A DNA stretch of 64,000 bases, from NCBI GenBank assembly GCA_951406725.2, contig OX597817.1, positions 105,090,001 to 105,154,000 of the forward strand, written 5' to 3'. The position numbers and the translations under genes were made by a program. This document shows, piece after piece, positions 28,945-47,589 of this stretch; the stretch's first letter is position 1; each line of letters starts with the position of its first letter. The notes beneath the pieces were generated by a model that did no database searches, was not told the DNA's origin, and worked only from the letters and a program-made list of their open reading frames with translations. Source of the DNA: Octopus vulgaris (taxonomy: Eukaryota).

Positions 28945-29031
28945 TTAATTTTAAGTCATCCGCAAAAAAGAGATGGTGGAGGGTGGGTGGCAGTGTGCGG
29001 CAGCTCTCCGAAAGAAATGTTCCTAACCATG
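28945..29031 (-). pseudogene. Small non-LTR RT fragment
   Basis: Minus-strand LHHLFFADDLKL (RT motif 5) abutting (TAA)n. Confidence 0.55.
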
Positions 29032-29104
29032 TTATTATTATTATTATTATTATTATTATTATTATTATTATTATTATTATTATTATCATTATTATTATTT
29101 TATT

Positions 29105-29397
29105 CAGTAGTTTTATTTTTATAGCGTGCTTTCACTTCACTACCGAGCGCAGCTCTGTGTGCCTTGGGTATGTGCTGTGATTTACTGTGATGCTCTGATG
29201 GTTACTGTATTGAAAGTGTTTTGCGTACGATGTGTGTAGTGCCCAGTAGTGCAATTTTTGTATGTTATATGTGTTTGTAAGTCCTGGTGTTTTTGTTATG
29301 TATTTGTCCGAATACTTTTTTTATCATACCTAATGCGCCTAATATGATAGGGATTGTTTCTGTTTTTAGATTCCATATTTGAGTAACCACTATTTCC
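29105..29397 (-). mobile_element. R4/Dong-like element, 3' terminal fragment in (TAA)n
   Basis: Homologous to 33374-33667; ends GCTATAAAAATAAAACTACTG(AAT)n on the minus strand. Confidence 0.85.
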
Positions 29398-29568
29398 GAA
29401 GGGGATCTTTACCCTTATTATTATTATTATTATTATTATTATTATTATTATTATTATTATTATTATTATTATTATTATTATTATTATTATTATTATTATT
29501 ATCATTATTATTATTATCATTATTATTATTATTATTATTATTATTATTATCATTATTATTATTTTATT

Positions 29569-29916
29569 CAGTAGTTTTATTTTTATAGCCCATCCCGCTC
29601 AAAAGGTCCCTGAATAAGGGTTGTTTTAGGATGTTGAACGAACCACCCATGTTTCCAGAAGTGAATTATTCAAAGCCCAAAGAATCCCTCTCAACACATG
29701 GCTATGATGCTACCCCACTACTTTTGCTCATGATCAGAGATGCACATATCGTCAGCCACTAAGGAACATGTTCAACTGGTTAAGGTCAAACAACTGAGAA
29801 GCAGAATATTTGCTGTAGCCCATCTTTTATACCAAGACAAAACAATGTACATGATAACACTTCCAATCAGTTAAGATCAGAAGCCATGAGAGCCACTGCC
29901 TGGTACTGCATCAGGG
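29569..29916 (-). mobile_element. Short element: about 330 bp non-coding segment fused to the last about 21 nt of the Dong-like 3' end (possible internally deleted derivative)
   Basis: Minus strand (TGA)n-TGCCCTGATGCAGTACC...GAGCGGGATGG-GCTATAAAAATAAAACTACTG-(AAT)n. Confidence 0.55.
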
Positions 29917-45600: not shown

Positions 45601-46106
45601 TCCAGAGGTCTCTCGCCTGGCAGTGCTACCGAGGGGCTCTGCCTGTTCGAGATAAACTCTACCGGCACGGAAGTGCCGTCAGCCGGGCCTGCCCGAGGTG
45701 TTGCCAGGACGACGAAACCGTTCTGCACGCACTCGTCCAGTGCCCGAGTATTGCTGAAATATGGGTTTATGTCGAACAGCTACTGTCACGTGTAGGACGG
45801 ATCCGACTATCGGCCGAATCCATAGTGAAGATTGCCCCGCCGACCTCCTTTAACAAGGAGGGCGAGGCCGTTTTCTTGTGCCTTGTGGCTGTGGCGAAAG
45901 AAGTCGTGTGGTGGACTCGTTTGAAAGGGCTAAAGTCAGACACTTTCCTCTTTGGTCAAGGCCTCATCAACTTTTTCAAGTTTCACTTGAAAAGGAAGAT
46001 GAGGTTAGAGAGGAAAGTGCTGTCCGATAGCAAGTTTTATGAAAGGTGGGTGAATTGTGCGAGACTGGCCTGTATAAATGGACCAGTTCTCAGGTTTCGC
46101 CTGTGA
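42672..46106 (+). CDS. Tx1 ORF2: APE + RT + zinc finger (1144 aa)
   Basis: As copy 1, with three residue differences seen (GASV/GASD, RALTG/RAPTG, LSALH/LSVLH). Confidence 0.95.
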   Translation: MANLRIGCLNVRGLGSPWKQGHLLNDLRFHDVDIAAISETRLSDPQELAALFGGYEIFLSPCRPGAGGGGTAVLFRKGLDLKIRTVFLDPEGKLVVLDVDGSDGGAFRLLAAYAPTGAGQSDYFKRLEVFLGTSRTLVLVGDWNAVLDERFDRVGRGASDRRGGGCKSLANLLGRFQLSDRFRLDNPNVPMWTWTNRIGSSRSYLDRVFCRPADKDSVGCPQFHLVEYTDHKLVICTVDLDRLHRQGPGYWKLNASLTACKAYRDRISLLVKRAPTGAIINNNWWFALKRAIRVESIRYSKTLAIERRKRERDLVKKLDEALDTGIATDVLAARLALDQHFDAKHEGCVVRAKARSLSGEGTRAARWARVAEAKRGNRATIRSLVDQNGREVTQPKQMCTVLQRHFAQLFGTSGGTDTNGTDFGVYLDGLPQLSDSEAECCEGPISAWEVQEAMKSCTRGRSPGLDGLPYELYFSMPDLFADLLANVYCNWQQNGRIPAFVCRGVVALLKKDPNKGDVIGNFRPITLLNAELKILAKVLAKRLALVVDKLVGGTQTCAVPTRSIHDNLHLMRYIIERVGNDAGAGGALINLDQSKAFDRVDHRYLAAVLKAAGFGPVFRGWIAALYSNICSVIRVNGHLSEPFDISRSVRQGCPLSSLLYILTLEPLLRKLEALRGIPRDLGGGNSVSAYADDVTVVVSSHRHIGLIGETLNQYEAVTGAKINAEKSVGLQLGTWRGKPMPSNSVVGRWTDGPVKLLGVWFGPDLQVDKNWEEVTSRVARLTQKWAERKLSLKGRAEVANAYIASVIYYRLTVVPCPDRWLAKLVHLLFDFLWKGQVPLVRRSICCQRPLNGGLGMPWLLLRRHALRLRHLKRFLDGEQVWSSFVRRDFPQLVSLTELQTWIKRRPRKGAWHLECRQALSVLHQAGNAVGYSSTLAFYRGLVEEKCDDVLGETLGVEDDELSGLFGRTFGPGPMDNFQRSLAWQCYRGALPVRDKLYRHGSAVSRACPRCCQDDETVLHALVQCPSIAEIWVYVEQLLSRVGRIRLSAESIVKIAPPTSFNKEGEAVFLCLVAVAKEVVWWTRLKGLKSDTFLFGQGLINFFKFHLKRKMRLERKVLSDSKFYERWVNCARLACINGPVLRFRL

Positions 46107-46457
46107 TTTCAAAGAAAAAGGTAATGTAAAAGGAGAAGAAAGGGGACTCTCTACACCCCTTTTTGACCAGGCTCCCGTTGGCTTTTGTAGGGTTTTTTCC
46201 ACCGGGAACATTTCGAGACGTCTCCCCCTTTTGGGAGTTTTTCATTGTTGAATTTTATAAGTTGTTATAAAGATTTTTACTCGATGTTTTAAAAAAACGG
46301 ACAAAACCCTTTGTAACCTTTCGTCCTGTCTTGTCCCTTCATGTAATCATGCGTGTCAGCCCTTGTGGCCAATAAAAAAGAATTGATTATTATTATTATT
46401 ATTATTATTATTATTATTATTATTATTATTATTATTATTATTATTATTATTATTATT

Positions 46458-46888
46458 CGCTATTTTCCGGAGAACTTTCGGGCGGGAACCGATGGATAAT
46501 TTCCAAAAAGCTCAGGCCTGGCAGTGGTACCGGACAGCTTTGCCTGTTCGAGATGAACTGTACAGGCACGGAAGTGCCGTCAACCGAGCATGTCCGAGAT
46601 GCGCGTATGACGACGGGACGGTCCTGCTTGCACTCGCCTAGTGTCCGAACATTGCTGACCTGTGGGATTATGTCGAACACCTGCTGTCGCGTGTGGGTCG
46701 GATCCGGCTGTTAACTGAAGCCATCGTGAAGATCCTCTCGCCGCATTCCTTTAATCGGGAAGGAAAGGCTGTTTTATATGCCTGGTGGCCAATCCCAGAT
46801 CAACTTCTTTAAGTTTAACTTGAAAAGGAAAATAAGGGTAGAGAGGGAAGTGTTGTCTTCTAGCCAGTTTGCTGAAAGGTAGATGAAA
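46458..46888 (+). mobile_element. Older, diverged Tx1 ORF2 3' fragment
   Basis: Homologous to about 45560-46055 (PMDNFQKAQAWQWYR..LPVRDELYRHGSAVNRACPRC) with stops and a deletion. Starts right after (ATT)24. Confidence 0.85.
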
Positions 46889-47170
46889 GTAGGCGCATTA
46901 GGTATGATAAAATAAATATTCAGACAAATACATAACAAAAAACACCAGGACTAACTAGTATATATAAACAGAAACAATTCCTGTCACAGTAGGCGCATTA
47001 GACAAATGCATAACAAAAACACCAGGACTAACTAGTATATATAACATACTGAAAATAGCACTACTGGCACCGCACACATCCTAGGTAAAGCACTTTCAAT
47101 ATAGTAAAAATAAGAACATCAACATCAAACCACAGCACATACCCAAGGCACACGGACTTGGGCTCGGAAG
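46889..47170 (+). mobile_element. R4/Dong-like 3' fragment, opposite orientation, with internal duplication
   Basis: gtaggcgcattaggtatgataa..acataacaaaaacaccaggact (twice)..aaaatagcactactggcaccgcacacatcct..cacagcacatacccaaggcacac. Confidence 0.8.
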
Positions 47171-47589
47171 GGAATTTCTTGGTGCTATTCCATGGTCACT
47201 CGTGACCGAAGGAGGTCTTTACTCCTTTCTTTTATGTGTATGTTAACAGTTTATCATATTAGAAATATCTTAATGTTTCTTTAAGAATTTCTGGTTGGTA
47301 GATGGGTCGTCTATCGCTCTTTTTACGAGTATTGATTTGTTTTCCTCATAGGAAACTATCTAGAGCGGTGGCTTCCATCGTTCCTCTGCCCTTGTTACCC
47401 TATGTTCTCATGCCGAAGGTATGCGACGTTTTGTTTCACTCTAACAGAGAAAATATAAGCTCCAGAGGAAATCTCACAACACATATTACTGTCGACGATA
47501 ACACAGGGTGTAGTAACACCACATTTGTAGATCCTATCCAAAAGCTTTTTAACTGTGGGCATTCCGTTTCCTCTCTCCCTCTCTAGTCA

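Follow-up and report, generated by a model that had tools for sequence, protein, structure and literature searches.

Composition of the locus

A cluster of retrotransposon pieces and (ATT)n tracts was analyzed in a 64-kb stretch of the Octopus vulgaris genome (assembly GCA_951406725.2, contig OX597817.1, positions 105,090,001 to 105,154,000), which is called the window here. The interval under study, positions 28945-47230 of the window, was chosen for its pattern of tracts and elements. It contains pieces of R4/Dong-type elements, a group with a restriction-like endonuclease (RLE), and a Tx1-like family with an apurinic/apyrimidinic-type endonuclease (APE). There is about an even chance that an AAT/ATT microsatellite was hit by the R4/Dong-type elements and that a Tx1-like element was then inserted into the same tract in the opposite direction. 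The cluster is real, mostly ordinary, and partly misdescribed in a preliminary description of this DNA.

By length, the interval consists of 64% young Tx1-like sequence, 19% CAT repeat, approximately 9% R4-related sequence, 3.5% ATT repeat and 2.4% old Tx1-like sequence (Table 1). The preliminary description had presented these ~18 kb as almost entirely retroelement pieces with ATT joints. The pieces and six (ATT)n tracts were indeed found, but a perfect CAT array accounts for 18.7% of the interval. AAT tracts make up 2.0% of the window and 1.4% of the sequence outside the interval. Of the ten AAT tracts listed, eight adjoin an end of R4 or Tx1 type, in one case with an ACT run in between; this count is a biased test because the interval was selected for that pattern.

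Two full Tx1 copies and an older Tx1 fragment had been claimed on the plus strand, and all three were confirmed. The two copies are 99.5% identical, each with an open reading frame 2 (ORF2) of 1145 amino acids, and the fragment shares 76-79% DNA identity with them. The three R4/Dong-type 3' ends described on the minus strand are also present (A, B and C), although B comprises only 26 nt. The additional Dong-type end on the plus strand corresponds to piece D, which is Dong-related but has another 3' terminus and no tract in or beside it. A minus-strand scrap of reverse transcriptase (RT) had been placed at ~28945-29031, where the best tblastn match against 97 proteins scored 22.3 bits. This score was reached by 8 of 30 shuffled sequences, and a further comparison gave E=3, indicating a chance match. 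No tRNA genes were found in the window.

Table 1. Features of the interval and of the R4-type element outside it (positions in the window)
Feature	Position	Strand	Remarks
(ATT)n tract 1	29032-29099		adjoins 3' end of Dong-type piece A
R4/Dong-type 3' end A (ORF end and 3' untranslated region [UTR])	29100-29397	-	275 of 296 aligned bases identical to C
17- to 19-nt stub	29396-29414	+	matches D terminus at 15 of 17 positions; directly before tract 2
(ATT)n tract 2, with three ATC interruptions	29415-29563		
Dong-type 3' stub B, 26 nt	29564-29589	-	interrupted tail in common with A
Unassigned 327-bp sequence fused to stub B	29590-29916		
Perfect (CAT)x1138 array	29917-33330		
(ATT)n tract 3	33329-33373		at 3' end of C, continuous with CAT array
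R4/Dong-type copy C, 5'-truncated	33374-34367	-	CCHC motif, RLE-type domain, 3' UTR; frameshifted
Imperfect (ATT)n tract 4	34368-34647		between 5' ends of C and Tx1-like copy 1
Tx1-like copy 1, full length	34648-40511	+	ORF2 36794-40231 open; AATAAA at 40497; no poly(A)
(ATT)7 tract 5	40512-40532		separates the two Tx1-like copies
Tx1-like copy 2, full length	40533-46385	+	ORF1 frame 40625-42631; ORF2 42669-46106; AATAAA at 46371; no poly(A)
(ATT)24 tract 6	46386-46457		
Older Tx1-like fragment (C-terminal ORF2)	46458-46888	+	flush start at tract 6
Dong-related piece D	46889-47222	+	internal duplication, other 3' terminus, no adjoining AAT tract
(ATT)24	59554-59625		3' end of R4-type element E, outside interval
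R4-type element E, old, second family	59626-63739	-	RT, CCHC and RLE-type remnants
(ACT)31 and (ATT)12-13	63740-63871		5' end of E

The two groups of retrotransposons

The ORF2 product of the Tx1-like copies matched the Pfam families Exo_endo_phos (residues 11-232, E=4e-17), RVT_1 (E=9e-30) and zf-RVT (E=1e-08). Its top matches in the PDB were human L1 ORF2 (E=5e-51), with R2 behind (E=2e-22). The ORF1 of copy 2 carries a CX2CX4HX4C zinc knuckle; the Pfam zf-CCHC match was weak in the window (E=0.045-0.08) and exceeded the curated cut-off in three of six related ORF1s. Six of ten proteins that were looked up bear Octopus names; they include the closest ORF1 relative, from O. sinensis (77% identical), and proteins from O. 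vulgaris and O. bimaculoides. BLASTP detected no resemblance between the window ORF1 and the ZCCHC3-type ORF1 found in the fish matches. In the RT tree, the window element grouped with unnamed proteins and with the array loci described below, and the named neighbors were fish hypothetical proteins. A search of the ESM Atlas gave no clade name. The name Tx1 is a provisional one that follows the architecture of the element, and the tree contained no reference Tx1 sequences. L1-Tx1 elements have been reported as recently active in O. vulgaris, with 421 recent insertions (PMC13282606).

The two copies lie head to tail and differ by 10 substitutions in ~5.85 kb and by 8 indels. Seven of the indels affect homopolymer runs and break the ORF1 of copy 1; the remaining one lies in a CAA repeat. 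In copy 2, the long ORF1 frame does not match the frame of the first ATG before it, the two being separated by an A-run of unequal length in the copies (40752-40820 in copy 2; 34868-34940 in copy 1). As assembled, both copies may lack a fully intact ORF1. At a published rate of 0.0036 substitutions per million years (PMC13282606), their 10 substitutions would have taken about a quarter of a million years to accumulate, provided that the differences are real. At both 3' ends, AATAAA is followed by 9 nt and then by (ATT)n, and poly(A), a trait of the L1 clade, is absent from the DNA copies. The older fragment contains a stop codon and an internal deletion and does not have a 3' end of its own. 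Its continuation was not found past D, where 182 of 300 shuffled sequences scored equally.

For the R4/Dong-type pieces, the translation of C showed a CCHC motif followed by RLE-type residues, and the same motifs were present in the translation of E. The closest database relative of C was 85% identical, and this relative matched an R2 protein structure over the CCHC/RLE region (E=0.0017); no named R4 reference was among the matches. A and C are 93% identical. E shares 30-42% amino acid identity with C over the longer matches and is much older than the pieces of the interval. No intact R4-type 5' end was present among A to D and E in the window. A to D contain no RT, and the R4/Dong label is given here on the basis of motifs and of the TAA flank. 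An element of ~1.9 kb at 60421-62347 interrupts E; it has imperfect terminal inverted repeats and a weak FLYWCH match (E=0.09), and by its look it is presumably a decayed Mutator-type DNA transposon.

The four minus-strand pieces (A, B, C and E) all have (TAA)n on the sense strand beyond their 3' ends. Two R4-type families within 64 kb thus use the tract in one polarity, as published for Dong. This bears out the earlier statement that Dong targets (TAA)n, which has been reported for Dong families of silkworm, mosquito and snail (PMC3812793). The latter paper files Dong among the APE elements, and R4 is placed among the RLE clades in PMC4640811. Dong-R4 elements are described as abundant and recently active in O. 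vulgaris, with 5 families and 1129 recent insertions (PMC13282606, Table 1).

Two tail interruptions are common to A and B and absent from C, so B may be a local copy of the end of A and not a third insertion. The shared interrupted tail is the single hint of copied tails. The sequence of 327 bp beside B had been described as a short derivative, but it is not shown to derive from Dong, as it had no relative in the window and no Rfam family at gathering score. Its interpretation as a Dong 5' end with a ribozyme had no support either, since neither an Rfam match nor a fold like that of the hepatitis delta virus (HDV) ribozyme was found, and the sequence is left unassigned. An HDV-like ribozyme at the 5' end has been described as a feature of the R4 clade (PMC3774820). 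A home-made descriptor, uncalibrated on a known ribozyme, gave no HDV-like match at the 327-bp sequence, at the 5' end of E or at the Tx1-like 5' end.

The alignment of D follows the 3' UTR of C and A and then departs from the Dong 3' terminus. The last 17 nt of D (47206-47222) recur on the plus strand at 29396-29412, and none of 100 shuffled sequences gave two matches. The match between this plus-strand stub and the terminus of D indicates that R4-related sequence occurs in both polarities. The terminal motif may represent a second R4-related family or the tail of a short interspersed nuclear element (SINE). An octopus SINE may have a similar ending.

Proposed use of the tract and competing explanations

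The three Tx1-like 5' junctions were all flush with a tract and read ATT/C, and both 3' junctions read G/ATT. All five are compatible with nicks at TpA on both strands, the step at which the L1 endonuclease (PMC13295347) and the TRAS1 endonuclease (PMC7265360) have been reported to nick. Because tract 4 lies between the 5' ends of C and copy 1, it is not the 3' tail of any element. Tract 6 runs right up to the start of the older fragment, and there is no ATT at the corresponding position of the young family. As the older fragment is decayed and the ORF2s of the young copies are open, the young copies must have inserted into the tract upstream of it rather than next to the 3' terminus of an older copy.

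The proposed course of events starts with an AAT/ATT microsatellite that would have been struck repeatedly by R4/Dong-type elements, with the TAA strand as the sense strand. The Tx1-like family would then have entered, in the opposite direction, the tract between the old Dong 5' end and the older Tx1-like fragment. Its transcript may extend into the tract behind it by a few units. Its endonuclease would nick at TpA in the AAT strand, whose free end in AAT would pair with the AUU units of the RNA and prime reverse transcription. Such read-through and priming are suggested by the lack of poly(A), by AATAAA ~10 nt before the end and by the junction phases. For the Dong-type elements, the TTA strand would be nicked and used as the primer, the mirror image on the other strand, as the literature and the observed flanks suggest. 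The second Tx1-like copy may stem from a new insertion into the tract that follows the first copy or from local duplication, and later changes in tract length probably occurred mainly through slippage.

The convergence of an RLE and an APE element on one repeat had been proposed in the preliminary description. Its Dong half is supported and was already known. The Tx1 half, the targeting of AAT by the Tx1-like family, is the new part and a candidate new target variant; it is plausible but thin, and one locus is insufficient to show it. Several observations weigh against it. The evidence comes from a single genomic locus with one or two independent Tx1-like landings, and target-site duplications are unreadable inside a microsatellite. 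Agreement in phase is weak evidence: the observed phase of each junction has a chance of about 1 in 3, and it is blurred if the element starts or ends with letters of the repeat. The older fragment is fused to D without a continuation, so its flush start could be the breakpoint of a deletion or a chimera. On the R4 side, D lacks the sense-strand (TAA)n flank and, together with its stub, breaks the polarity rule.

The relatives of the Tx1-like element add further points. A profile built from 12 ORF2 sequences recovered 42 related loci in GTDB assemblies; the related protein clusters had 732, 435 and 352 members, and 50 of 58 sequences were kept in the FastTree tree, 8 being dropped as short. 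Forty of the loci lie on 16 contigs of the record CAXXMW01, where head-to-tail Tx1-like arrays with open ORF2s repeat with a period of ~6.4-6.8 kb. The remaining two loci, each a single copy, are more distant, and no Dong-type RLE was found among the 42. A motif search recovered 47 distinct 3' junctions in the arrays; at all of them, only a few bases separate AATAAA from the following copy, and at least three AAT units within 80 nt occur at no junction. Truncated copies begin right after a 3' end, different subfamilies alternate, and two adjacent truncated copies share one junction, indicating duplication at work there. The array loci form the sister clade of a group made up of the window element and one 73% relative (support 0.974). 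The wider lineage therefore stacks in tandem without a microsatellite, which makes the dimer in the window weaker evidence for tract targeting. However, the array relatives, the nearest ones with flanking sequence, share only 41% ORF2 identity with the window element, and the octopus family may behave differently. The record CAXXMW01 is titled as a bacterial metagenome-assembled genome yet holds arrays of long interspersed nuclear elements (LINEs), which flags contamination of the record; its array contigs are evidently eukaryotic DNA in a bacterial bin, and the arrays possibly represent a self-targeting lineage that forms satellite-like arrays.

If this habit is shared by the octopus family, the (ATT)n tracts may be its own 3' tail, and a chance landing at a common AT-rich tract would have been followed by pile-up without any AAT targeting. 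This explanation, which we regard as possible but doubtful, draws on the head-to-tail arrays with their truncated copies after 3' ends and adjacent subfamilies, on their sister position to the window element, and on the report that dimers of transposable elements (TEs) are common where a site preference exists (PMC5932611). It does not readily account for young copies on the 5' side of an older fragment, or for two different families (76% identity) that both begin flush at the tract. Moreover, the distant array relatives lack a repeat tail, and the octopus family may not share their habit. Alternatively, there may have been a single young landing, which became two copies through unequal exchange between the flanking tracts or through an assembly in which two haplotypes or reads were joined at ATT. 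The identical 5' and 3' ends of the copies and their 10 substitutions are in line with such doubling, as is the junction common to two adjacent copies in the related arrays, and the homopolymer and CAA indels resemble long-read errors. The same fault of assembly may also have affected the 3.4-kb CAT array. It is perfect in 1138 of 1138 units and continuous with the AAT tail of copy C, whereas the other long tracts are interrupted (126 of 168, 83 of 92 and 46 of 49 units). Given this purity and the mostly homopolymer differences between the copies, a long-read consensus artifact fits as well as recent expansion, and the array is either a very recent expansion or an assembly artifact. On the other hand, the flanking DNA shows no duplication, the arrays of the sister lineage are real, and copy 2 has a substitution at a residue where 11 of 11 homologues agree with copy 1, so the copies are not identical. 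Doubling of one insertion is considered unlikely.

It is very improbable that the cluster accumulated passively, with insertions tolerated in a repeat-rich, gene-free patch and with tracts that stem from tails and slippage. The window is rich in other repeats and decayed elements, TE hotspots have been described in O. vulgaris (PMC13282606), and the interruptions common to the tails of A and B suggest copied tails or local duplication. However, junctions are flush with tracts also at 5' ends (C, E, Tx1-like copy 1 and the older fragment), the LINE remnant at ~49.3-51 kb has no adjoining AAT tract, and Dong targeting is already published. These three alternatives to successive R4/Dong-type and Tx1-like insertion into one tract overlap in part.

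A stronger proposal concerns the AAT content of the genome, for which the preliminary description had suggested a feedback. The octopus Tx1-like lineage, with relatives that stack on their own 3' ends, would have gained an (AUU)n read-through tail and would prime on the AAT strand, with Dong priming on the TTA strand; each insertion would copy a few units and turn one tract into two, and the two clades would make targets for each other and be a main source of AAT in octopus. We consider this improbable. The longest AAT-rich tract in the window (17177-17681, 505 bp) touches neither family. It has been argued that insertion of the Dong type into an existing repeat would not raise repeat abundance by itself, unlike the tails of RTE elements (PMC2887409). 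An insertion splits the tract, and a gain of units is unreadable inside a microsatellite. The tract at 17177-17681 is a mixed AAT/GAT tract, and the AAT tracts in the window grade into GAT and AGT variants.

Other features were noted in the window. A decayed LINE of another clade lies on the plus strand at 49279-50900 (RVT_1, E=2e-26), with no AAT tract near it. Broken minus-strand reading frames at 54612-56233, 21732-22292 and 9384-10316 had no Pfam match above the cut-off; from their look, the first two are presumably remnants of DNA transposases and the third a Penelope-type end. A near-perfect inverted repeat of 92 bp (49030-49121) lies within a dispersed SINE-like repeat, and its Rfam microRNA matches were far under the gathering scores. 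At 27083-27190, an (ATT)5 run adjoins the end of a dispersed repeat family with further members at 3737-3892, 47598-47716, 48918-49089 and 52591-52787.

Comparison with known systems

In the literature covered, mostly without subscription papers, Repbase and supplements on Tx1 flanks, no (ATT)n-associated Tx1 family and no sharing of a tract by Dong and Tx1 in octopus was found, which is weak evidence of novelty. If the Tx1-like family is specific for AAT, it would add a new target to the Tx1 clade. It would also provide a young element with intact ORF2 for studying how a trinucleotide repeat is chosen by an APE endonuclease or a read-through tail, and, with one and the same substrate, it could be compared directly with Dong on the other strand. 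Moreover, repeated flanks would then have to be expected around many AAT markers of octopus. Without such specificity, the locus amounts to an ordinary pile-up at a target of Dong.

Sequence-specific insertion is a trait of many Tx1 members. The microsatellite targets reported for the Tx1 clade are TC, TTC, TTCC and TTTC (PMC4494074). Kibi, Koshi and the crocodilian Tx1 elements (PMC4494074) and the telomeric Tx1-1_ACar (PMC10088271) resemble the window family in having two ORFs with APE, RT and a C-terminal zinc motif, and they too are flanked by a simple repeat, with tandem copies around it. In contrast to those microsatellite and telomeric targets, the window family is found at ATT, and the likeness is one of architecture. 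Dong of Bombyx, DongAg and DongBg (PMC3812793; PMC2887409) are like the R4-type pieces in their RLE-type C-terminus and in the sense-strand (TAA)n at their ends, and a Dong member in molluscs has already been reported. Compared with these, the window contains only 3' fragments, with one decayed long copy in addition, and D has another terminus and no tract.

The reported link between RTE elements and microsatellites, which are seeded by the 3' tails of the elements (PMC2887409; octopus RTE tail, PMC9115989), likewise connects the 3' end of a LINE with microsatellite abundance. The RTE repeat, however, is enclosed by target-site duplications and arises anew at every site, whereas the repeat in the window existed before, at least in part. 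Utopia (RLE) and Keno (Tx1, APE), both described from U2 snRNA genes (PMC4640811), are likewise parallel in the specificity of an RLE and an APE element for one target, but they share a site in a gene, where their 3' flanks are identical, and in the window the target is a dispersed microsatellite used on opposite strands. TRAS1 and SART1 on (TTAGG)n (PMC7265360) are also two retrotransposons that occupy one short tandem repeat in opposite directions, although these two are APE elements that belong to the R1 clade, and their repeat is telomeric. Both the convergence of RLE and APE elements and the use of opposite strands of one repeat therefore have precedents.

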